From: Methanococcus maripaludis
GTDB lineage: Archaea; AGJL01; Methanococci; Methanococcales; Methanococcaceae
Assembly (NCBI RefSeq): GCF_013760955.1
Contig: NZ_JACDUL010000002.1
Span: 108,719-132,718, forward strand
DNA length: 24,000 nucleotides
Direction: 5' to 3'
A program made the translations under genes and the position numbers. The notes below the pieces were generated by a model. The model was not told where the DNA came from. It made no database searches and worked only from the letters and a program-made list of their open reading frames with translations. How positions within the stretch are numbered: position 1 is the first letter of the stretch; every line of letters starts with the position of its first letter. Shown one piece after another: positions 3,391 through 17,828 of this stretch.

Positions 3391-3497
3391 CTCCGTATCG
3401 CAATTCTTTCTAACATTTAATCCATATATTCTAACACATCGATGAAGTATATATACCATCCAGAATGCGGTTCAATTACAAACGAAAGGAGGTGAGG

Positions 3498-3698
3498 ATG
3501 ATGGTAAATTTTTGTTATAATAACAGTCAGACGTTGGAACATGAGGTCAGACACCGAATAGATTATAAATTGAACAAAGCATTCGAGGAAAAAGAATATG
3601 GTTTTATATTGCATATACTGTCTCAGCTTGAACTACACGAACATAAAATGGAATGTACAAACAAACCTAAAGAAGTTATGTTCAATCAAGAAGAATAA
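3498..3698 (+). CDS. Small hypothetical protein (about 66 aa)
   Basis: A strong SD (aggaggtgagg, 3487-3497) sits directly before the tandem ATG ATG at 3498/3501. No family was recognised. Confidence 0.45.
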   Translation: MMVNFCYNNSQTLEHEVRHRIDYKLNKAFEEKEYGFILHILSQLELHEHKMECTNKPKEVMFNQEE

Positions 3699-3708
3699 AT
3701 AAAATGTG

Positions 3709-4131
3709 TTATTTACCGTTTCGAATGGTGTTAAAGTCTTTTTCGTTTAACGGAACCATCGCACGTCGCAATGAACCTGACCACTGTTTTTTATTTTTTA
3801 TAAACTCCAACTTTTCTACAAGCGGTTTGAACAGAATCGGCGATTCAAACACTTCTATTTCCTTTAATTTAACTCTCAAAGGGTACGTTTCATTTGGATT
3901 GCGAGGATGTGCTCCAAATATCTTTTTTCCATCACGATTAACGTCTGAAGTGACTTCATAAAGTCCACGAATGTATTGTGGTTTGGGTTCTTTTCCGGTT
4001 ATACCCATTTCGTAAATCAGCAACATATCGCCTTTTTCAACTTTCGCAATCGTGTTTTTGTACATTTCAGAAACGCCCCAGACTTTTTTGTCTTTTACAA
4101 CGTTCCAGTTTTCTTCGTTTGTGATACACAT
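3709..4131 (-). CDS. EVE / PUA-like domain protein (archaeal PH1033-type)
   Basis: The protein from the internal Met reads [20 protein letters not shown]...GDMLLIY...[10 protein letters not shown]...YPLRVKLK...[18 protein letters not shown]. This matches my recollection of the stand-alone archaeal EVE/PUA-like family (WICIT.ENW..., VWGV, YEVTS, YPYRVK, FIKNKK.WS). The first 24 codons of the track ORF are probably not translated. Confidence 0.7.
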
Positions 4132-4252
4132 GAAGTAATTTGTCAGAATAACCACCACCGATATAATATAATCAATTATTCTGTTACTATTGTAACTTAA
4201 CATTTTCGAAATTATTGCAACATGACTCTAAATGGTAGGGAAAATGTTCACA

Positions 4253-4506
4253 AACCACCATAGATTCAAAATCATACGAATACGCTAAGTAGCGACAGTT
4301 TCAATTTTATGAGCTTTTCAGTACTCGTCGATCGTGTAGTTTCGAATGTTTGATATTCAGTTCAGAATTACATCGGCAAGAAGGCAGTATTATTCAGTAA
4401 CCTGGTTAACGTTCAACAATTTAACATATTGGTGTAAACAGCCAGTCGATAAGATCACTGAACCACCATAGATTCAAAATCTTACACGAACGTACCGTAG
4501 CGACAG
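4253..4506 (+). repeat. Composite repeat locus L, with a period of about 208 bp
   Basis: The core aaccaccatagattcaaaatc...gtagcgacag occurs at 4253-4298 and 4461-4506. Between the cores lie tttcgaatgtttgatat (4340-4356) and attacatcggcaagaaggcagtattattcagtaa (4367-4400). Copy 2 has an extra 9-bp stem, ccgtagcga (4495-4503) pairing with tcgctacgg (4526-4534). Confidence 0.85.
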
Positions 4507-4579
4507 GAACACATATGCGAGAGTTTCGCTACGGGCGTTTCAGGTATTTTAGATATGGTGAAATAAGTTCCTAATCGTC

Positions 4580-6613
4580 TTAGATATCAAACACTGACTT
4601 CGAATTAAATAAATTTTTCAAGGGGTTATCCACTTTGATTGATAATGTGTATAACGCACACGCATCCTTAAAATCTCGCTCATTAACTTCAGTATCTAAC
4701 CTGGCTTTCGCAAATGCGGTTGAAAGCCTAATTATTGTTTCAACCAGACGCGTTGATGTATTTTGATTAGCTCTTCTGTTAACGTAATATTCAACAATCG
4801 AATCTTCAACCGATTTAGGAACTTTAACGGACAGTGTCCTTGTGTATTCAATGAAATCCAGTAAAAATTCTCGATTAACCGTATAATCTCCAATATCTAT
4901 GGTTTTATCCAATAAGCTATCGGGATTGACTGATCCGAGGTTATGGTTTCTAATCGTTTTTCGAGCAATTTCAGCATCAAGTTCCTTGTTTTGACCAATA
5001 CCCATGTCAAATATCAAGTCAAATCGATCTATAACTGGTTTAGTTAGCTCAATCTGTTCAATTAATCCTTTTGTATTGTCCCAACACCCATTTCGAGGGT
5101 TACATGCAGCAAGAATTGCAATTTCCGCAGGTAGGCATATGTTTAATCCTGCTTTTGAAATGTGGATTTCTTGAGATTCCATCGCCTCTAAAAGATGTGT
5201 TGACATCTCTTTATTTACCGTTAATTCATCAAGTGATGCAGTTCCACCGTTTTTACAGACGAGTAATCCCGGTTTAGTTACCCAGCCACTATCACCAACT
5301 GAAGTTCTTTCTTGTTCCACAGCTGCCGTTAATCCAACACCCGAGCTTCCTGTAATCGATCCGTATATGTTTTTTGGAAGTTTTGACACGGTACGAAGCA
5401 TTTCAGATTTACCTACTCCCGGATCTGCAACTAACAGGATATGTAAGTTATTACGGTTTAATCCAACGGCGCCTTTCAGCTGTTGAAGTAGCAGCGCTTT
5501 TTTTACGTCTTCGTGACTATGGATTGTCGGGATCAGTATTTCAGAGAGCTTATCGAGTAACTTGATATCGTTTTTGGAACAGTACTCAACAACCTGTTTT
5601 ATGTACGTTATTTTGTTTTCGTCCAATCTATCGACTATAATATCTTCGACAGCCGCAATACTTTTAGCGTAAATGTAAATATCGTAGATAAGTCCGTTTT
5701 TCTGTTTTCTCTTGAACGGGATTCCGATAACATTTAGTTTACCGCTAAAGAGTCCCGGTGAATTCTCAAAGAACACGGTAATGTATTTTGGAGGTTCCTG
5801 TGGGTTATCCATTGTTTCTAACGGTTGCTGTAACTTAATTTCCTGAATATCGATATAATCAGATTCCAATTCGTTCAACATCATTTCTTTTCCACATTTA
5901 CACCACACCTTTGAAATGTCCTCAAACATGTTGTCAAGTGTTTCTTCCCGATTATTGCCGCAACCACATGTGTAAGCACCTTTTTTTAGCATTACCTTTT
6001 TAGATGACGCAATTGATATGATACCTTCAAATTCTACGACTTTTCCGATTTTAGCAGAGTTTATGTCTTCGATATCACATTTGTATTTATCAGGTAGGTT
6101 CTGAATAACGATTCCATCACAATCGGGTTTTTCATTCTTCAATAACCTGTAAGCTTCAGTATACGCTTCCGAAAACATTTTGAAGACGTCATTGGGACTG
6201 CTATCGAGTTTATTCAGCAGAAATTTATCGGTACCAAACTCCTCTTGAAAGTCAACGATAACCGTTTTACCGCTTTCAATCTTTCTTTTGTGTTTATCCA
6301 GCAGGTATTTTACAATGTCAGATAATTCAGTTTCCGATTTATGTAAATAACCAGATTTATCTTCGTAAAGTATGTCGGCATCCATTAATTGGTTTATGTA
6401 TTTGCTATATGTGGACCGATGTAGTCCTGCACTGAGTAAGATCCCCTTTAGATCTTCAACGGCAATATTCACGTTGGAATGGGTATTGAATATGTAAAGG
6501 ATCGTGTCTCGAGCAGTAGGCTTTTCACCGTTATTTGTTTCTTTATACGATTTAACTGATTTTATAATCTGTTCTTGCAGTGTTTCTGTTAGTGCTATTT
6601 TTTCGTTGACCAT
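4580..6613 (-). CDS. mcm: MCM family replicative helicase with an N-terminal wHTH-like region
   Basis: Walker A is ADPGVGKSEML and Walker B is ASLDELT. Sensor/arginine-finger-like motifs are AILAACNP and IDRFDLIF. A Cys4 zinc motif reads CGCG...CKCG. The track start is a TTG; the ATG at 6613 (MVNEKIAL), preceded by gaagagg, is more likely. Confidence 0.85.
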   Translation of the reverse strand: MVNEKIALTETLQEQIIKSVKSYKETNNGEKPTARDTILYIFNTHSNVNIAVEDLKGILLSAGLHRSTYSKYINQLMDADILYEDKSGYLHKSETELSDIVKYLLDKHKRKIESGKTVIVDFQEEFGTDKFLLNKLDSSPNDVFKMFSEAYTEAYRLLKNEKPDCDGIVIQNLPDKYKCDIEDINSAKIGKVVEFEGIISIASSKKVMLKKGAYTCGCGNNREETLDNMFEDISKVWCKCGKEMMLNELESDYIDIQEIKLQQPLETMDNPQEPPKYITVFFENSPGLFSGKLNVIGIPFKRKQKNGLIYDIYIYAKSIAAVEDIIVDRLDENKITYIKQVVEYCSKNDIKLLDKLSEILIPTIHSHEDVKKALLLQQLKGAVGLNRNNLHILLVADPGVGKSEMLRTVSKLPKNIYGSITGSSGVGLTAAVEQERTSVGDSGWVTKPGLLVCKNGGTASLDELTVNKEMSTHLLEAMESQEIHISKAGLNICLPAEIAILAACNPRNGCWDNTKGLIEQIELTKPVIDRFDLIFDMGIGQNKELDAEIARKTIRNHNLGSVNPDSLLDKTIDIGDYTVNREFLLDFIEYTRTLSVKVPKSVEDSIVEYYVNRRANQNTSTRLVETIIRLSTAFAKARLDTEVNERDFKDACALYTLSIKVDNPLKNLFNSKSVFDI

Positions 6614-7673
6614 TTCATGCCTCTTCAACTGATTGGTAGTGTATTTGCAGTGTTTATTCTCAAAATACCACTGATGAAGATACTATATAAATACAACTAA
6701 CCAAAACGTTAGAAAAATTTGGCAGGGTGAATCAAAAACGAAAGTCATCGAAAGTAAAACAAGCGAGTATCACAGTCTAATGAACTAACAAAGTGATATA
6801 CCGCGTTACTCCTGAGCAGTAACACAAGAGTAACAATGATACAATGATGGTAACACAAAATAGACAGTATGAAAAAAGTAATTCGCAATCCAAAAAGAAG
6901 CCTGTAGCAACGTTACCTGACATAATAAGTGATAATAGAATAATTAGTATATGTATATATGTAAATGTTATAGTGGTTCTTAGGATATATACTTACCGGT
7001 TTTCGGTACCTAACGTTCCGGATAGATAAACATCGGATCTACAACAACGATAACTCTATTTTAGTAATTTTGAGTAAGCTGTATCGAGAAATTTACTGAT
7101 ATAGTGAGCTTTGGAAATTAAAGAAACGTGTTCACTCTAGAAATTTATGAAACACGATTTCGCGGGCTTTGACGAGTACCAAACTCACGCTGCTTCTCAA
7201 TCACATAATATATGATAGCGTAGGCTATAGGCGAAGTATTCACGTAGCGCTTCTGATTTAGAGATATAGCGAATACCAAACCGTACAAAATCAAACAACT
7301 AAAAGTGGTGATCTATGTGGATATTCAAACGCGTTTAACCCGATAATAATGAAAACATGTCAGCTGCGAGTATTTACGATACTCTAGGATTCTACATGAC
7401 GATTCCAAGAATGTGTGATCGAAATTCACGTTTTCAGCTGATTTCTCTCTACGTATTCCAAAACGCAGCGTTAATAGATGATATACTAGTGAATAACCAA
7501 TATCGAGGTGATATAATGACACGTTGAACAATATACCCTACTAATGAGCGTATATGTGGTAAATATCGATGTAAACCACACTATAACTCTAAACATACAC
7601 GATGACGCACATTAGTGAGTCAGAACTGATGAAATAACAAAATTTGATAAAACAAACAAAAAATGGTGAAACT

Positions 7674-8066
7674 ATGAAAACAACTGAATTAACTATACCG
7701 TCACTTGCGGCAACCGCATTATCACACAAAGGCTTATGCGGAAGGGGATACACAAAAATTAGAAACCAGATAGATTCCGAGTACTGGGAGATTGGTTCTA
7801 AACTTCTCGAGGAATGGGAATCAAACACGTCATTAAACATGTATTCGGTAACTGCTGAATTGTACCACGCTAAAGAGTTTAACTTTAAGGGTAAACACTA
7901 TGGTATAAACGTTATTGGAAACGGTAAGGTAAGAAAAATGTGTATGGACATTGCAGCGGTAGAAATGGATCTTAATCGGAAAATGGATAAAAAATACGAA
8001 TCGATGTTGAATGATATTATATGTAAATTACAGAAGTACGATTTCGAAACTCAAGAGATGTGTTAA
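7674..8066 (+). CDS. Hypothetical protein (130 aa)
   Basis: The ORF has an SD (tggtgaaact) before ATG 7674 (MKTTELT) and a TAA stop. No family was recognised. Confidence 0.5.
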   Translation: MKTTELTIPSLAATALSHKGLCGRGYTKIRNQIDSEYWEIGSKLLEEWESNTSLNMYSVTAELYHAKEFNFKGKHYGINVIGNGKVRKMCMDIAAVEMDLNRKMDKKYESMLNDIICKLQKYDFETQEMC

Positions 8067-8114
8067 CCAAGTAATTTGTGTATCAACACATTACTTTGGA
8101 TCCATCCGATCTGA

Positions 8115-8360
8115 TTACATCGTCAAGAAGGCGATGTATTATTCAGTAAATATATACAATGTTCATTAAGCGAATTTAGAAACGTAAACAGCCGGTCGAT
8201 ACGATTAACAAACCACCATAGATTCAAAATCTTACACGAGCGTACCGTAGCGACAGCTTCAGGTTCATCAGCTTCCTAGTATGTGTTGAACATGAGTTGG
8301 TTTCGATGTTTGACATCACATTATAATTACATCGTCAACATGGCGATGTATTGTCTGACA
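8115..8360 (+). repeat. Composite repeat locus R; same modules as locus L, in direct orientation, with a period of about 211 bp
   Basis: The hairpin module attacatcgtcaagaaggcgatgtattattcagtaa lies at 8115-8149 and recurs at 8326-8360. The 73-bp core at 8184-8256 is about 90% identical by eye to 4434-4506. tttcgatgtttgacatcac lies at 8301-8319. Confidence 0.85.
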
Positions 8361-8636
8361 CGAGTTTAACGATTTATACGAAACTCAATAATGTATGCTG
8401 AAATGTACAAGATTACGAAACTGTGTTCTAAACGTTGGGACGAAACAATCAATGAACCATCATGGATTAAAATGTTGGTATCAACGCTTCATAACAACTG
8501 TTTTAGAAATGCGAGCTTTCCCGTACATAACGTTCAGCGCCATGAACCACACAGACAATACGCGACAAATTCTCTCGATATCATAATTTATATGATGTAG
8601 TTCATAATCGGTATGTAATAAGAAGAGAGTGGTTAA

Positions 8637-9398
8637 ATGAAGATATTTTATTTTACAGGTACTGGTAACAGCCTGTACGTGGCTAAACGAATTGGTGGAG
8701 AACTTTATTCGATACCACAGGTGTTAAAAGACGGTAATCTCGAATTCGAAGATGAAACAATCGGTATCGTTTTTCCATGTTATGCTTTTGGTGTTCCACG
8801 ACTTGTTGCTGAATTCATCAAACGTGTAACGTTAAACGCTAATTACGTTTTTGCTGTAATGACGTACGGTAATATGAGTGGATCGGGACTAAAACAGCTC
8901 GAAGATCTCGGAAAACAGTCAGGTATCACATTTAACTATACTAACGAAATCTGTATGGTTGATAACTATCTGCCGCTTTATTCAGTTGAAGAACAGTTGA
9001 AACACGAAAATAAGAAGCTTATCGAAGCCCACGTAGAAAATATCGTTAATGATATACGCAATCAGAAAACGAAATGCAAACGAAAAGGAATAGTGATGGA
9101 CACCGTTTCCAAGTTAGTTTACCGATTCGTTTATGAAAATAAGCTCGATATGGCAGACAAGAAATTCATCGTTAACGAAAACTGCAACGCTTGTAAATTG
9201 TGTGAGAAGTTATGTCCTAAAAATAACATTTCAGTAACGGATAAACCGGAATTTTTACATCGCTGTGATATCTGTTATTCGTGTATCCACAACTGTCCGC
9301 AAAACGCGATTCACTTGAAAAACGAAAAAAGTAGTATGCGATTTATCAATCAACATGTAACCGTAAACGAGATAATCGATTCAAACGATCAAAGTTAA
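8637..9398 (+). CDS. EFR1-type protein: flavodoxin-like N-terminal domain fused to a 2x[4Fe-4S] ferredoxin domain
   Basis: The N-terminus is MKIFYFTGTGNS, a flavodoxin-like loop. Two CxxCxxCxxxCP motifs are present (CNACKLCEKLCP and CDICYSCIHNCP). An SD-like gagtggt precedes the ATG. Confidence 0.7.
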   Translation: MKIFYFTGTGNSLYVAKRIGGELYSIPQVLKDGNLEFEDETIGIVFPCYAFGVPRLVAEFIKRVTLNANYVFAVMTYGNMSGSGLKQLEDLGKQSGITFNYTNEICMVDNYLPLYSVEEQLKHENKKLIEAHVENIVNDIRNQKTKCKRKGIVMDTVSKLVYRFVYENKLDMADKKFIVNENCNACKLCEKLCPKNNISVTDKPEFLHRCDICYSCIHNCPQNAIHLKNEKSSMRFINQHVTVNEIIDSNDQS

Positions 9399-9406
9399 TG
9401 TTATAA

Positions 9407-10453
9407 CTATTCGGATTCTGTATTCTCGCTAGATAACTTTTCCATATACTTCTCACGAATCTTTGATAGTGTTTCACCAGTTTCCTTAAGCACTGCGAAG
9501 TTGTATGTCTGGATACTCGACCATCCGTAGACACTCTTTAGCCATGTTTGCATTGACATCTCGGTAGCGACAGCTGTTTGCATTGGTATTTTACGAACAT
9601 CAGCTGATCCAATTGACATTTCAGTAGGGATAACCGATACATTTCCGTTTTTCAACAGAATTGCTTCAGCGTTATGATCTTTCGCTTTTATCACGTCACC
9701 AGGTTTTACAACGCCCCATTCAAGCATGTCACTAATTTTAGGTAACGAACGTCGTGTGATGTCTTTAGTTTTCTTTGATACGTATTTTGCTTTATCCATC
9801 AGGTTAACGTAGTAATCTTCGTATCCTGAAACCGGTAGAATCTTTTCAGCGTTTATATAACATTCATTGTTGATTTTGTACGGTGTTAACTGAAAACAGT
9901 TCATATCAACGTTATTCTTGTTCAACCACGCTACCGCTGACAGTGTTTGTTCGTCGTATTCACCTGCAGCGAGAATGATTCTCTGTTTCTCGTTAAATTT
10001 GGTAACATCGTTCGCATCTAAAAATTCGTTAAGTTTACGAATTCCTAATTCATATGATGTGAGCTCACCGATTTCGTATTCATTGCGGTATTTCTCGATG
10101 TATGGTGCGTAGACCAGTTTAACTAACTCATCGGGACTTTCGACTTTCGCATAACTTGCAGCGTATCGAATTGCCTGAAACTCGAACGCTTCTTTACGGT
10201 TTTCGATGTCTTTCTTATCTCGCTTAATCTCGATTAACACAATGTTTCCGTTGTTGTCGACTGCTGTAAGATCACTTCGACCGTTTTTCTCGTTTTTAAC
10301 CTGTCGTCCAACAATCAACAGTGATTCTTCATCATCACACAGCATATCGATACTGCATCTCAAGATCTCTTCAATATCGTTTTCGTTCATCCCAAGTTGC
10401 GAAAACGTGGTAGCTTCGACTTTCGCTGCCTTTTTGTTAGTGATACTGTACAT
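9407..10453 (-). CDS. NucS/DUF91-like PD-(D/E)xK nuclease with an uncharacterised C-terminal domain
   Basis: The nuclease core reads GRSDLTAVDNNGNIVLIEIKRD...FQAIRYAASY (D...ExK plus Q..RY). The likely start is ATG 10453 (MYSITNKK), with ggggtg about 9 nt upstream. The C-terminal ~110 aa (...QTWLKSVYGWSSIQTYNFAVLKETGETLSKIRE) is unassigned. Confidence 0.6.
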   Translation of the reverse strand: MYSITNKKAAKVEATTFSQLGMNENDIEEILRCSIDMLCDDEESLLIVGRQVKNEKNGRSDLTAVDNNGNIVLIEIKRDKKDIENRKEAFEFQAIRYAASYAKVESPDELVKLVYAPYIEKYRNEYEIGELTSYELGIRKLNEFLDANDVTKFNEKQRIILAAGEYDEQTLSAVAWLNKNNVDMNCFQLTPYKINNECYINAEKILPVSGYEDYYVNLMDKAKYVSKKTKDITRRSLPKISDMLEWGVVKPGDVIKAKDHNAEAILLKNGNVSVIPTEMSIGSADVRKIPMQTAVATEMSMQTWLKSVYGWSSIQTYNFAVLKETGETLSKIREKYMEKLSSENTESE

Positions 10454-10761
10454 AATTACTGCACCCCGATCCCCGATAACCATTACGGTCGTTAAAATGA
10501 TTTGTAACTGTACAGTACTATTCGAATGGTTGTTATTTATGCGTTGTTAATTAACACAACTGATTATTGTGAAATGATTATACCGCATTCGTTAGCATTG
10601 CTACCGCAACCTGAAACGTGTTTACAATATCAAAAAAAAATTTATACTCCTGAGCAATTTGACGTCGTAGTGTTACGATACGTCACAAGTGAGAATTTAT
10701 TTTTCCTCCTCAACTATGACTCGTCGTAGTACCAAAGTGTTATATGTTGTCTCGTTGCGTT

Positions 10762-11293
10762 GCCCACTCGTTGTTCGTGTTACTCACAACTCGTTGCACT
10801 CGCATTGGGCGCTCCGCGCTATAATTATATATAATACGTAAAAAAAATATACTCCAATCTTATACGCTAATCGTATAAAACTGGTAGCTTACGTCTGGTT
10901 ATGTATTCGGTAAAGTGTTAACCAGTATTTTTACTCACCGTACGATATCACTTAATTCCCGGCTTTACTAACTCAGTACGTTGTCTTGTACCTTTACTCT
11001 ACACTTCAGAGTTTGTTAGTTTACGAATCGACAGTTCGAAACGACCGTAACCTCAAGCATGTCTACCGTTATCCAGTTATGCGGGTGTACTCTGATTGAA
11101 CCATTTAAACTCATCGGGTCCGCTTGTGTTCACGTAATCACCGACTTGAGGTGATTATCACTGAGGGTATACAGAGGGATGTTCAGACCTACACACATAT
11201 ACCATTGTACTACGTTAGTTTGTACAATGAGAGTTAATTTCCGTTTAGTTAAGTGAACAGAGTACCGTATTCTCTTGTCCCGCAAGTCCTTCT
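10762..11293 (+). ncRNA. Candidate structured RNA, paralog A. Strand is tentative and the family is not recognised.
   Basis: The unit aligns along its whole length with 12330-12825. It has no conserved ORF. Four hairpins are maintained by compensatory changes. A TATA-like box lies upstream. Confidence 0.4.
10811..10836 (+). promoter_or_regulatory. Conserved GC block plus TATA-like element upstream of unit A
   Basis: gctccgcgctataattatatataata. The block gggcgctccgcgctataattat is identical in unit B. Confidence 0.35.
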
Positions 11294-11513
11294 ACGTTTT
11301 GTTGTACTTTGTAATCTTATATGGGGAAGTCGTAGTGAGTATATATACTTTATCGAAGTATGTACATGAATTGATTGTCATCGTCACGATGTAATCCCAG
11401 CGTAGTTTGCAGAGCTAAAGCGTTATTATCGTAATTGTATGGCGAATTAACCAACTAATCATCTCAACACGTTTTTACATCCCTGTAGCTTACGGTTTAT
11501 CTGTATTGGTTAG

Positions 11514-12080
11514 CGTTCGTTATTCACAGTAGTTCATAACTCACTTTTAGCAGGGTATACTCAAGCTGATTAATTCACATTAACTTTTGAGATCACTAAC
11601 TGTAATTTTGCGTAATGCTAATGCTCGTTGTTCTATGCTATCGCAACTCGCATTTACCGAACGTACTGCTGATTCAACTGCTACGTACTATTTCCAGAGA
11701 GCATTTCATGTGATGGTACGGTAGTGATAGTTATTTGGTAATGTATGCTGTATTTCACTCACGTTTCAGCTTTCAGTACATTTACGGCAATTCTCGGCAT
11801 ATCATCGTTCGTTATTCACAGTAGTTCATAACTCACTTTTACCGAAAAATACTCAAGAGTTAATTACCTCGTGCTGATAACGCCGTTTAAATATTGTTGA
11901 TGTATTTGTGTGTTATTTCACGTTAAAAAACACATTAAATCTCGTAATGGTTTACAAAGCGGTTATGTTCGAGTATGTTATGGTTTAACCGTAATCAGCA
12001 GATATATCATGTATTTCACTTACCGTATTTTCTCTGATATCGTCGCTCGTTGTTCTCTGCTATCACAACTCACTTTTACC
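11514..12080 (+). repeat. Four dispersed copies of a 36-bp module (U1-U4)
   Basis: U1 (11514-11549) and U3 (11806-11841) are identical: cgttcgttattcacagtagttcataactcactttta. U2 (11623-11658) and U4 (12045-12080) differ at 4 of 36 positions: gctcgttgttct(a/c)tgctatc(g/a)caactc(g/a)c(a/t)tttacc. The two types are about 70% similar by eye. A related motif lies at the heads of units A and B. Confidence 0.85.
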
Positions 12081-12329
12081 CGGGATACCACACAGTTTAG
12101 TAACTACTGAGACGTTATTTGATTGTAACCGTATTGCATGACCTACAGTTATCTCGAAGTGGATTACCAATGTACCGTACCAGTCAAGCCTTCGGCTAAC
12201 CGATTCGTTAACGTGGTGAAAAGAGTATTCGTAAACATTACCTTAACACAGTGAGTTATGTTCAAAGTCGCGTTCGCTGTACGCTGTACGCTTTACGCTT
12301 TTTGAACTAACTCATCTACTCACTGCTTC

Positions 12330-12825
12330 GCCCACTCGGTGTTCGTCAACTCACACCTCATTACACTCGTATTGGGCGCTCCGCGCTATAATTATTATAT
12401 ATTACATATCAGTTGTTTATAGTCTAATCTTATGTACATTTTACATAAAATGACTTGCTTACGTCCGGTTAGTTAATCTGATAAGTGTTAACCGGTATTT
12501 TGTTCATCTGTATGATATCACCCAATTCCCGGCGTTATTAACACAACATTACACTTACATGTGTGTTAACTTACGAAATGAATCTGACCAAATCGACCAT
12601 AACCTTGAGCACGTTTACCATTTTTCAGTTATGGTTACATGACTCCTGATTGAACCATTTAAACTCTCATGTCCGCTTTTAACTTCACCAACCTACTGTC
12701 GGTGAGGGTATCTGAGGGATGTTCAGGCAGTACGTTATAACCACCATTGCACTTTTGTAGCGCAATGTGAACGTTTAATCCAATTTAATGGAATTTCATA
12801 TGTTCTCGTGTCCCGCACGTTCTTC
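12330..12825 (+). ncRNA. Candidate structured RNA, paralog B
   Basis: See paralog A. The same conserved blocks are present, including a perfect 21-mer ctgattgaaccatttaaactc (12646-12666, matching 11092-11112). Confidence 0.4.
12377..12405 (+). promoter_or_regulatory. Conserved GC block plus TATA-like element upstream of unit B
   Basis: gctccgcgctataattattatatattac. Confidence 0.35.
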
Positions 12826-13455
12826 CATATGTTAGTAGTAACTCTATCACAATCGTTGATACCATATATATGTTATTATTGTAATCGATTTAAACGCGTT
12901 TGATCTGATTTTTGAGTATTGTGATTGTATGATTTGGAAATACTGCAGTAATGAATATGTAAAAAACGTATCAGCGTTACATACACGGCTTATCAGATTT
13001 TTGTACCTTCCATAGGTTGACGCTCACGGTCAATCCATACTGTAATCGGTGATATGCAGTCGATAGGTAGGTGATGATTAACATAACCAGTGTTTGGTGA
13101 ATATACAAAAAAGTATCGCACCCTTTTTTACAAAAAACCGTTCAAAAGTATTACACAAAATGTGAACACATTACCACTTTGTGAGCGTGACTCACATCGT
13201 ACGTTCTGTATAGACCTGCAGCTTTTTTGTGAAATCTGTTAACTCGACACCCGCGTGTTAATTTTGGTCCGATTGCTCGGACCACTTGCCATTTAGGGTA
13301 AGTCGTATAAAAAAGTTAAAGCTAGCTAATAACTATGTATGATCATGACAATATATAAGTTTTTCGGTAATTGGCGGATATTCAGTGCTACATTTTATAT
13401 ACTAACCACTTGTACACTTGTGTATTGGTTACACGGTGCTATGTACGTACCGTTA

Positions 13456-13552
13456 ACACAGTGCCACTTGTATATGGTTCTACATGATATACATTGCTAC
13501 ATATGGCTGTAAAACACTTTGACACAGTGCCACTTGTATATGGTTCTACATG
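13456..13552 (+). repeat. Perfect 31-bp direct repeat with a 66-bp period
   Basis: acacagtgccacttgtatatggttctacatg occurs at 13456-13486 and 13522-13552. It contains the CACTTGTAT motif. Confidence 0.9.
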
Positions 13553-14736: not shown

Positions 14737-14866
14737 AATATCACCTTGTGTTGGATTGGATTATTTTATCGTAATTACCGTGAGATAGTACGAGTACATA
14801 AAATCGTAGGTTCTAGAGTTTAGGGTATTACGATCGGAACTTTTGTAGTTTGCTAAATGGTATATA

Positions 14867-14965
14867 CGCTCACTACCGTAGCGTTCATATTTCTGAAACT
14901 CTTGTACTGAAACGCTCACAAACAATTCGTATTAGTTGGCTGTTCACGTGTTTGATACATAGGGT
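14867..14965 (+). repeat. ~100-bp unit C1
   Basis: C1 shares cgctcactaccgtagcgttcat, acgctcaca and gtgtttgatacataggg with C2. The anchor motifs accgtagcg and tgtttgatacat also occur in loci L and R. Confidence 0.7.
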
Positions 14966-15203: not shown

Positions 15204-15299
15204 CCACTCACCGTAGCGATCATCAAATTGTACAGTTCACAATGAGACGCTCATCACTGATTCATAGCTTTACCCAGTTCTTGTGTTTGATACATAGGG
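15204..15299 (+). repeat. ~100-bp unit C2
   Basis: ccactcaccgtagcgatcat ... acgctcatca ... gtgtttgatacataggg. Confidence 0.7.
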
Positions 15300-17644: not shown

Positions 17645-17687
17645 GATTTCAAGTCCGGCGCCTTTGGCCAAGCTCAACCACCTCTGC
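17645..17687 (-). tRNA. Truncated tRNA-Ser(UGA): the 5' half only, through the anticodon loop
   Basis: The minus strand reads GCAGAGG-TG-GTT-GAGCTTGGCCAAA-GGC-G-CCGGA-CTTGAAA-TC. This has archaeal class II tRNA-Ser layout, with a long D loop containing GG and the anticodon TGA. After TC the expected 3' anticodon-stem strand TCCGG is replaced by TCTCGACGGAC followed by T6. No variable arm or T arm is present. Confidence 0.6.
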
Positions 17688-17711
17688 TCGCACTTGTACT
17701 TAAGCGATTCA

Positions 17712-17724
17712 GCTATATATACTT
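17712..17724 (-). promoter_or_regulatory. TATA box for the tRNA-Ser fragment
   Basis: The minus strand reads aaagtatatatag and ends about 25 nt upstream of tRNA position 1. This is canonical archaeal spacing. Confidence 0.5.
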
Positions 17725-17828
17725 TTCTATTTTTCTTTACAATACTAGCAATAATTTTTATTTAAAGAACGTAACTAGCCATAAAAATTAATATTTAGGT
17801 TTAATTTTGAAATTTAAAAATTAAAGTA

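Follow-up and report, generated by a model that had tools for sequence, protein, structure and literature searches.

The DNA analysed here (the window) is a stretch of 24,000 nucleotides from Methanococcus maripaludis and falls within a 25.4-kb mobile island that occupies a tRNA-Ser site and encodes a tyrosine integrase. The left end of the island has an intact tRNA-Ser gene together with the integrase gene, and a partial tRNA-Ser sequence forms the right arm of the attachment-site repeat. Inside the island, an MCM helicase gene and a divergent small gene, ORF130, are bracketed by two repeat loci, L and R, each composed of a hairpin (H), a core (C) and a T-box in repeating order. The features are as follows.

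4226..4340, plus strand: core C1 with its tail, the outer left unit (repeat search, nhmmer and profile model)
4339..4356, plus strand: T-box of the L locus, tttcgaatgtttgatat (read in the sequence)
4367..4393, plus strand: decayed H palindrome of the L locus, 78% identical to the R hairpin
4434..4548, plus strand: core C2, the inner left unit (repeat search and nhmmer)
4580..6628, minus strand: MCM helicase gene (Pfam MCM, MCM_OB and MCM_lid domains)
6629..7643, no strand: non-coding stretch that separates the divergent genes MCM and ORF130 (sequence read)
7674..8066, plus strand: ORF130, a small protein that always accompanies the repeats (homologs in Methanococcus only)
8067..8099, plus strand: hairpin directly 3' of the ORF130 stop codon (z = -4.0)
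8114..8140, plus strand: H palindrome copy 1, ATTACATCG-N9-CGATGTATT (DNA hairpin fold, z = -4.3)
8184..8299, plus strand: inner right unit, core C3 plus its tail (90% identity with C2 across 73 nt)
8300..8316, plus strand: T-box of the R locus, tttcga(a)tgtttgaNat (read in the sequence)
8326..8352, plus strand: H palindrome copy 2 (DNA hairpin fold, z = -4.7)
8428..8552, plus strand: core C4, the outer right unit and most diverged copy (repeat search, nhmmer and profile model)
14867..14965, plus strand: member 1 of a remote repeat pair, a candidate relative of the core tail (repeat search)
15204..15299, plus strand: member 2 of the remote pair (repeat search)
17645..17735, no strand: right arm of the 91-bp attachment-site repeat, partial tRNA-Ser (98.9% identical to the copy 25.4 kb upstream)

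Anatomy of the MCM-ORF130 cassette

A first-pass annotation of this DNA had described composite repeats that bracket MCM in direct orientation, and a repeat search of the window shows that these are real and larger than first reported. The 73-nt core family has four copies (4226-4298, 4434-4506, 8184-8256 and 8428-8500), whose start-to-start distances are 208, 3750 and 244 nt. Relative to the reference core at 4434-4506, the first copy is 62% identical, the last is 60% identical and the copy at 8184-8256 reaches the 90% that had been estimated by eye. Where 1.3-1.5 units per locus had been counted there are two cores in each (L at 4226 and 4434, R at 8184 and 8428), and the limits of the loci, previously drawn at 4253-4506 and 8115-8360, are corrected to approximately 4226-4548 for L and 8114-8552 for R. 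The 21-mer AACCACCATAGATTCAAAATC has three exact occurrences against 0.01 expected from shuffles, and C2 and C3 are identical over a 29-nt stretch. All four cores of the 1.76-Mb genome are found here, no further copy being recovered from it by BLAST, nhmmer or the profile model.

The repeat units measure approximately 210 bp, with a conserved core part of approximately 115 bp. The T-box motif described earlier is seen in both loci, and its L copy is 83-100% identical in orthologous islands. A hairpin module had likewise been assigned to both; the two R copies do fold, but the L copy has decayed and no longer does so (z = -0.8), while the island variant L044 keeps a nearly intact H at that position. 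The end of C2 is itself a 9-bp hairpin (4495-4534, z = -3.9), approximately 50 nt downstream of the MCM stop codon, and four orthologs, that of M. vannielii included, retain a hairpin there. A MITE or other non-autonomous transposon was considered as the source of the units and rejected, the copies being confined to the cassette, in tandem pairs and in a single orientation, with no terminal inverted repeats seen.

MCM and ORF130 are the only genes between L and R; no recombinase gene is present there, and the island integrase lies 12 kb from the cassette, at the tRNA-Ser end. In public gene calls MCM starts at 6613 (677 aa), and a canonical TATA box for it, TTTATATA, is found at 6684-6691 on the minus strand. 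The protein has an extra N-terminal region of approximately 100 aa with sub-threshold winged-helix matches only, and the predicted recognition helix of this domain varies among repeat-bearing islands; the allele in the window is only 58-62% identical to the MCMs of the other islands of this kind. Within the intergenic stretch, the block at 6910-6995 is 84% AT; this best candidate for AT-rich unwinding stands 1.1-2.4 kb from the repeats. An AF2 model of ORF130 (pLDDT 72) had no match in PDB or BFVD and contained no recognisable DNA-binding fold, and the protein is not basic (pI 4.6-9.0). In a different element, a family-B DNA polymerase gene is overlapped at its end by an ORF130 homolog of 38% identity, near which no cores were found. 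No Orc1/Cdc6 domain was found among the island proteins scanned; for this reason, and because the repeats are direct, not inverted, an archaeal Orc1/Cdc6-ORB origin was rejected.

Distribution and conservation of the cores

Three further M. maripaludis islands and M. vannielii have these repeats on both sides of MCM and the 130-aa ORF, with order and orientation unchanged. A profile search of 40 Methanococcales species genomes recovered cores in two, the genome containing the window and that of M. vannielii SB, and ORF130 and cores co-occur in the same genomes. Sister islands with an MCM of approximately 60% identity have neither cores nor ORF130. Islands of this sister lineage possess three 39-41-nt repeats between 33-nt hairpins upstream of MCM.

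A phylogenetic tree assigns C1, C2, C3 and C4 each to a cross-strain group and joins C4 to the last copy of M. vannielii (support 0.92). Such orthology is at odds with a recent local duplication with no conservation, the outcome on which the first-pass annotation would have abandoned its proposal. Across 19 copies, 11 core columns are invariant and 9 near-invariant, giving approximately 20 positions that are kept across paralogs and species, and other non-coding DNA of M. maripaludis and M. vannielii yields no alignment. In comparisons within M. maripaludis, identity is 83-93% for the R modules and approximately 80% at ORF130 third codon positions; constraint at this depth is therefore weak. 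M. vannielii has six cores, of which four have been homogenised with each other; the third pair is situated between MCM and the ORF. In this species MCM is broken by stop codons, yet all six cores persist. None of the M. vannielii units contains the H palindrome, which has also decayed at L in two variants and is therefore not essential.

The conservation of the core is one of sequence and not of fold. RNAalifold predicted no pairs on 19 plus-strand cores, a column-pair scan of the plus strand found no helix of at least 4 bp in at least 75% of copies, and 10 minus-strand copies gave only a weak 6-bp helix with RNAalifold. The repeats had no Rfam match, even at E = 1, and no consistent TATA box was found upstream of the cores. 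A structured non-coding RNA was rejected on these grounds, with neither a conserved fold nor covariation on either strand, and the first-pass suggestion of small RNA genes is disfavoured. The repeat units are probably sites in DNA to which a protein binds, and not RNA genes.

Breakpoints, unit number and cargo

Homology between island variants starts or stops at the outer edges of L and R. The window is homologous to variant L035 over 3418-8373, ending approximately 20 nt past H copy 2, and its homology to L044 begins at 4225; the homology between L035 and L044 starts shortly upstream of C1 and stops shortly past the second hairpin. The R locus is H-C4 in L049, H-C3-T-H-C4 in the window and H-C3-T-H-[58-aa gene]-H-C4 in L038, and the junctions between these three forms fall within H or next to it. 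Variants have between one and three units, with no apparent loss of the cassette. The 58-aa gene cassette of L038, with H on both sides, is the sole cargo bounded in this way; Fer4, NucS-like and RHS cargo do not have H at both ends. In L049, which has a single H, the flank is a hybrid that switches type just after H, and L044 differs from the window by three substitutions, all in one H spacer, inside a region of 96% identity. A sister island, G001, presents an 'empty' site: its EVE and NucS-like genes are 234 bp apart, and the gap contains one decayed core in the expected orientation (12.9 bits, E = 2.7e-5 in a 351-nt search).

As a description of how the loci behave in evolution, the earlier idea that they are recombination sites delimiting a module is sustained by the breakpoints, unit numbers, hairpin-bounded cargo and empty site; no recombinase is borne by the module, however, so homologous exchange is as good an account of these events as site-specific exchange. 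Around H the sequence is repeated over approximately 70 nt, a length sufficient for ordinary homologous exchange. Public assemblies of the same island yielded no contig that contains a circle junction.

Interpretation of the repeat units

We consider it possible, if somewhat short of probable, that L and R are DNA-level end repeats of the MCM-ORF130 cassette, with cores that are iteron-like binding sites and direct repeats that serve as crossover points for gain, loss and cargo exchange. On this reading, a replication cassette of approximately 4.3 kb (MCM, the AT-rich intergenic stretch and ORF130) would be nested in the 25.4-kb integrase-bearing island. The core of approximately 115 bp would work as DNA, not as folded RNA, most likely as a composite, iteron-like site to which a replication factor of the cassette or of the host binds; ORF130 is one candidate binder, and the additional winged-helix-like domain at the N terminus of MCMs in this clade is another. 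Cores are set in tandem pairs approximately 210 bp apart at both cassette ends. Exchange between units would add or remove units and swap neighbouring cargo, and could take out or bring in the cassette as a whole. H, a 27-bp palindrome, is the best-matched stretch of these direct repeats, so the units may also be places of recombination. Exchange between the palindromes at 4367 and 8114 would release a 3.75-kb circle carrying one H-C unit, MCM, ORF130 and the AT-rich stretch. It is a good deal less likely that the cassette is an excisable mini-replicon, on whose 3.75-kb circle MCM would rely on its extra N-terminal winged-helix-like domain to recognise the core, and would need no Orc1/Cdc6 for loading. 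Were this so, MCM here would be a self-loading archaeal helicase and the circle, to our knowledge, the smallest MCM-based replicon known.

Several known systems resemble this arrangement in part. In P1, F and related plasmids, iteron arrays bracket the initiator gene (incC/incA and ori2/incC), and classical iterons are direct repeats of 17-22 bp, regularly spaced by one or two helical turns. The present loci similarly place direct repeats on both sides of the replication gene(s), are specific to one replicon lineage (other repeats occurring in the sister lineage) and are conserved in sequence, not fold. They differ in their units of approximately 210 bp (208-244 bp apart) and core of approximately 115 bp, compared with 17-22 bp, in bracketing an MCM helicase and a 130-aa protein instead of a Rep initiator, in their archaeal host and in the putative nature of the binding. 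An attL/attR pair, or a solo repeat left after deletion, would also flank a discrete segment with direct repeats, and in the related island G001 the flanking genes are neighbours separated by one decayed copy; unlike such sites, the L-R segment contains no recombinase, and at its ends long units that have diverged (60-90% identical) stand in tandem pairs, in place of one short identical core. Integron attC and Xer pdif sites share with H an imperfect palindrome at cargo junctions, with conserved arms and a variable spacer, and one small gene cassette is palindrome-bounded on both sides. The palindrome here is 9-9-9 and not 11-6-11, however, most cargo indels are not bounded on both sides, and H is absent in M. 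vannielii. An integron attC or pdif cassette system was rejected, only the 58-aa gene cassette being H-bounded and no IntI-type integrase gene having been found.

The island as a whole can be likened to the pT26-2-family integrated plasmids of Methanococcales, which integrate at tRNA-Ser by means of a tyrosine integrase and use MCM as their replication protein (PMC6972569). The likeness is drawn from these features, the family itself being defined by seven core genes (PMC6972569), and the island in the window is smaller and filled with restriction-modification and nuclease cargo. Origins in the family were predicted from repeat-rich regions and GC skew; the portions of that account consulted here contain no description of these repeat units (PMC6972569).

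Purely replicative arrays seem to us somewhat unlikely. On that explanation the repeats would be origin or copy-control elements, to which a cassette protein binds and so loads MCM or pairs the arrays ('handcuffing'), and recombination would be incidental to their being repeats. The first-pass proposal of origin elements for an MCM-loading initiator is compatible with the strict tie to one MCM/ORF130 lineage, the sequence-only conservation of the core and the extra intergenic pair of M. vannielii; these speak also for purely replicative arrays, as do the different repeats beside the sister-lineage MCM, the four homogenised copies of M. vannielii and the adjacency of ORF130 relatives to a DNA polymerase gene. 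However, the units are some ten times the length of known iterons, ORF130 is without a detectable DNA-binding fold, the AT-rich block is far from the repeats, cores remain beside the broken M. vannielii MCM, and one to three units are tolerated without apparent cassette loss. Functionless relics, that is, old tandem duplications or integration scars kept alike by gene conversion and inter-island exchange, would fit an R-module divergence within M. maripaludis that is close to synonymous sites, a decaying H at L, a variable unit number and the signs of local homogenisation (CACTTTAG is common to C1 and C2 of L035, with CACCATAG in the window copies). We judge this improbable, given approximately 20 positions kept across paralogs of 50-65% identity and across two species otherwise unalignable in non-coding DNA, and the preservation of the 2+2 arrangement, with its order and orientation, in each of the five islands.

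The palindrome, written ATTACATCG-N9-CGATGTAAT, could instead serve a tyrosine recombinase, the island integrase or host XerA, as the core site at which cargo and the MCM cassette are inserted and excised. Conserved H arms around a variable 9-nt spacer, the doubly flanked gene cassette of L038, the switch just after H in L049, the confinement of the L044 substitutions to one spacer and the direct orientation needed for excision are all as such a system would have them. The chances of this explanation are nonetheless low: the cassette has no recombinase, the island integrase's own site in tRNA-Ser is unrelated in sequence to H, H is missing in M. vannielii and decayed at L, the Fer4 and NucS-like indels lack H on both sides, and the repeat of approximately 70 nt suffices for homologous exchange. 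Equally doubtful is the explanation that every unit is a small non-coding RNA gene or a transcribed regulatory leader, working by primary sequence and not by a stable fold. A TATA-like AAATATATAC stands at the right distance before C3 and is kept in three variants, and two TTT runs in the T-box offer a possible transcript end; this box is absent before C1, C2 and the M. vannielii copies, however, neither strand has a consensus structure or covariation, Rfam gave no match, and no complementary target was found elsewhere in the genome. L is, moreover, antisense to the MCM transcript and R sense to that of ORF130, so the transcript contexts are opposite.

The remote pair at 14867-14965 and 15204-15299 is a genuine direct-repeat pair and its link to the L and R cores is weak, as had been noted at the outset. 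A core-tail profile search did not recover either member, and the full core profile gave a single weak match at 14856-14927 (E = 0.002) on the opposite (minus) strand. The pair has CCGTAGCG(A/T) and TGTTTGATA in common with L and R, at similar spacing, which may hint at a distant relationship, and the member at 15204-15299 bears one of the genome's four CGTAGCGA 8-mers.

Direct repeats around the MCM gene

The two repeat loci that bracket the MCM helicase gene and a 130-aa open reading frame (ORF130), L on the left and R on the right, are read here as repeats that mark, at the level of DNA, the two ends of an MCM-ORF130 replication cassette, and their cores are most likely iteron-like binding sites. 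In P1/F-type plasmids, iteron arrays bracket the initiator genes, and the cassette cores are arranged like these arrays. MCM-bearing mobile elements are common in Archaea and, to our knowledge, their origins and helicase loading are essentially unmapped; lineage-specific repeats, kept in two species around MCM and a replication-linked ORF, constitute a concrete and testable candidate origin site.

A repeat search of the window, G000:C2:108719-132718, recovered a 73-nt family of four copies in one orientation (C1 to C4), which alternate with a palindrome module (H, ATTACATCG-N9-CGATGTATT, 27 nt) and a T-box (tttcga(a)tgtttgaNat):

4226-4298, core C1, 62% identical to the reference copy, C2
4339-4356, T-box
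4367-4393, H palindrome, 78% copy
4434-4506, core C2, reference copy
4580-6628, minus strand, MCM gene
6910-6995, AT-rich block between the divergent MCM and ORF130
8114-8140, H palindrome
8184-8256, core C3, 90% identical to C2
8300-8316, T-box
8326-8352, H palindrome
8428-8500, core C4, 60% identical to C2

The array is a repeating H-C-T with a period of 208-244 nt, ordered C1-T-H-C2 in L and H-C3-T-H-C4 in R. The first-pass annotation had this anatomy right, but its figure of 1.3-1.5 units per locus needs revision, since each locus contains two cores. The central 21-mer of the core occurs exactly three times against an expectation of 0.01, and BLAST, nhmmer and a profile model detected no further core copies in the 1.76-Mb genome. 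Two remote relatives proposed earlier (14867-14965 and 15204-15299) form a real repeat pair, but one with only a loose tie to L and R: they have two 9-mers in common with these loci at similar spacing, the core-tail profile does not match them, and the full core profile gives one weak match (14856-14927, E = 0.002) on the opposite strand. Both H copies in the R locus fold into hairpins (z = -4.3 and -4.7), the L-locus copy is decayed (z = -0.8), and C2 is closed by a 9-bp hairpin of its own (4495-4534, z = -3.9). An interrupted inverted copy of the T-box (atatcaaacactgacttcgaa) lies over the last MCM codons (4584-4604), possibly by chance. No other block of the cassette is as AT-rich as the one at 6910-6995, which reaches 84% AT, contains alternating TATATG-type runs and is a candidate site of unwinding. 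As a repeat-specific motif, AGATTCAAAAT was rejected, having 10 occurrences outside the island; CGTAGCGA, in this genome an island-only motif, also turned up within unrelated cargo of other islands and was set aside.

The cassette resides in a 25.4-kb integrated island, as indicated by a 91-bp direct repeat (98.9% identical), tRNA-Ser(tga) and an integrase. The left copy (G000:C2:100993-101083 in the source genome, 25.4 kb upstream of the right copy; L031 2275-2365) overlaps the intact tRNA-Ser(tga) and adjoins a 340-aa tyrosine integrase, while the right copy (17645-17735) is a partial tRNA with no ARAGORN call; no tRNA or tmRNA was found within the window. Island genes run in the order UvrD-nuclease fusion, DNA methylase, type III Res-like helicase, EVE-domain protein, L locus, MCM (minus strand), a 1-kb non-coding stretch, ORF130 (plus strand), R locus, flavodoxin/4Fe-4S protein, NucS/Shedu-like protein and a 7-kb gene-poor stretch. 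With four MCM genes, the genome is typical of Methanococcales. Integration at tRNA-Ser and the use of MCM are likewise features of the pT26-2-family plasmids of Methanococcales (PMC6972569); according to the passages of that paper that were searched, the origins of these plasmids were predicted solely from repeat-rich regions and GC skew, and no description of H-C-T units was found in the same passages.

The cassette in related islands

Profile searches, together with look-ups via ORF130 and MCM homologs, identified four further core-bearing islands.

Core-bearing loci from relatives
M. vannielii SB (L030): six cores in three tandem pairs, on the MCM 3' side, in the MCM-ORF intergenic region and after the ORF130 homolog
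M. maripaludis (L035): type I R-M, EVE, L, MCM, ORF131, R, 58-aa gene, 7-kb RHS region, NucS-like
M. maripaludis (L044): NucS-like, Fer4, R, ORF130, MCM, L, then unrelated cargo with a Barstar/RNase toxin pair
Two Logan contigs (L038, L049): R-locus variants

In all of these relatives the cores keep one constant orientation with respect to MCM and ORF130. Of 40 species genomes from the order, only the source genome and that of M. vannielii contain cores and ORF130. Across 60 relatives, BLAST with the R locus returned only its own genome, the M. vannielii copies being visible only with a profile, and a DNA similarity search of plasmids and phages with the R locus gave no match; back-translated searches recovered no relatives of MCM in species genomes and viral contigs, nor of ORF130 in species genomes and metagenome contigs. 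In a tree of cores, C1, C2, C3 and C4 each form a cross-strain group, so the 2+2 layout is old and the recent local duplication raised by the first-pass annotation is contradicted. C4 and the final M. vannielii copy fall together (support 0.92), and four M. vannielii copies are mutually homogenised. The syntenic MCM of M. vannielii SB (L030 8866-11013, annotated as 607 aa) is broken by two stop codons, and all six cores are kept around it.

Exchange at the repeats

The window is collinear with L035 over 3418-8373, ending approximately 20 nt past the second H, and its homology with L044 begins at 4225, one base before C1; the stretch common to L035 and L044 runs exactly from approximately 33 nt before C1 to just past the second H. 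Identity between the window and L044 is 72% up to 6375 and 96% over 6557-13458, the switch (approximately 6375-6557) falling within the N-terminal domain of MCM. The MCM body of the window (4580-6557) is a divergent allele between conserved flanks: it is 58-62% identical to the MCMs of other islands as protein and 54-58% at third codon positions, against 80-96% for the flanks, which suggests allelic replacement through recombination. The R locus exists in several versions:

L049: H-C4
Window and L044: H-C3-T-H-C4
L038: H-C3-T-H-[58-aa gene]-H-C4
L035: H-C3-T-H-[58-aa gene + 7 kb RHS]

Junctions between these versions fall within or beside H; in the single-H version, the flank is of the 'before C3' type until a few bases past H and of the 'before C4' type beyond; three substitutions, all within a single H spacer, separate L044 from the window in a region otherwise 96% identical. 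In a sister island from another genome (G001), the EVE and NucS-like genes are just 234 bp apart, and in the gap lies a single core, decayed and oriented as expected (12.9 bits, E = 2.7e-5 in a 351-nt search): an 'empty site' with a solo core copy. Breakpoints, R-locus variants, crossover points and the empty site together show that gain, loss and exchange of the cassette and its neighbours take place at the repeats. The flavodoxin/4Fe-4S gene (8537-9430; missing from L038 and L035) and the NucS/Shedu-like gene (9404-10587; missing from L049) behave as separate cargo cassettes.

The decayed L palindrome at 4367 and the first R palindrome at 8114 are 3747 bp apart, and exchange between them would release a circle of 3.75 kb; besides MCM, ORF130 and the AT-rich block, this inferred excision product would carry a single H-C unit. 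Public assemblies with identical MCM or ORF130 contain the integrated arrangement only and no circle junction. Were the unit to replicate by itself, it would offer Methanococcus genetics a second, very small vector backbone. From the five-island comparison, the replication functions of Methanococcus islands emerge as a discrete cassette open to swapping, deletion and re-flanking by different defence cargo, which helps to account for the uneven copy numbers of MCM genes among Methanococcales.

Nature of the cores and candidate binding proteins

Four rival explanations may be set beside this reading: that the loci are pure origin or copy-control arrays, that they belong to an H-based site-specific cassette system, that they encode unstructured small RNAs, or that they are functionless relics. 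Small RNA genes would be compatible with the TATA-like box that C3 alone has at a suitable distance, and that is absent for C1, C2 and the M. vannielii copies; MCM itself has a canonical TATA box (TTTATATA, 6684-6691, MCM strand). RNAalifold predicted no plus-strand pairs, and for the minus strand no more than a weak 6-bp helix rich in wobble pairs. A scan of all plus-strand column pairs found no helix of at least 4 bp kept in at least 75% of copies, and Rfam gave no match, whether at the gathering score or at E = 1. A coding role was rejected on inspection of the alignment, given indels among the copies that disrupt every frame and stop codons inside conserved blocks. An alignment of 19 cores has 11 invariant and 9 near-invariant columns across approximately 115 nt, in the blocks TAAAC, GTAG-CGA, AAC, TAGATTCAAAA, GTAGCGACAG and GAGCTTTCCAGTACG. 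Because these columns are conserved without a fold or Rfam match and with frames broken, the cores are under constraint at the level of primary sequence, for which DNA is the simplest reading. Their centre, GAA-N9/10-GATTCAAAA, has conserved flanks and a variable middle, which fits a two-part protein site. One caveat, which bears on the relic reading too, is that R modules within M. maripaludis are 83-93% identical against approximately 80% at ORF130 third codon positions; constraint is evident mainly at greater depth and across paralogs.

A site-specific system would draw on H, whose arms are conserved and whose spacer varies from one M. maripaludis variant to another; a palindrome scan found no H equivalent in the M. 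vannielii units. The sole recombinase is the island integrase, whose own site is unrelated to the repeats, and the approximately 70 nt repeated around H suffice for homologous exchange; the events are compatible with that route and do not show site-specificity. Pure origin or copy-control arrays would share the iteron-like arrangement of the cores; on our preferred reading, of cassette end repeats, being direct repeats also makes the loci the crossover sites through which cassette and cargo turn over.

Two proteins are candidates for binding the cores. ORF130 homologs occur in Methanococcus only and are not basic; ORF130 has no Pfam or PHROG family and no PDB sequence match, and its structure model (pLDDT 72) resembles no fold in PDB or BFVD. 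In another element (L047 6464-9411; M. maripaludis GCA_013761045, JACDUH010000003), a homolog of ORF130 with 38% identity and a family-B DNA polymerase gene overlap at the polymerase stop codon, which ties the ORF130 family to replication and not to DNA binding. That element, which lacks cores and may be a virus or large plasmid, has further genes for NrdD, the NrdD activase, a metallophosphatase and a 5735-aa protein. The island MCM clade has an extra N-terminal domain of approximately 100 residues with sub-threshold winged-helix matches (HTH_45, MCM_C), and cellular MCMs align only from about residue 100-130. This domain is also present in the core-less sister lineage, and its predicted recognition helix varies.

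Sister-MCM islands (approximately 60% identical; L029, L043, L046) are without cores and ORF130, and have three 39-41-nt repeats between two 33-nt hairpin repeats upstream of MCM. At L029 8275-8790 (G001), the 33-nt repeats contain a palindrome with 8-bp arms and are accompanied by two 22-nt repeats; this field, upstream of the sister MCM, looks like an origin in its layout.
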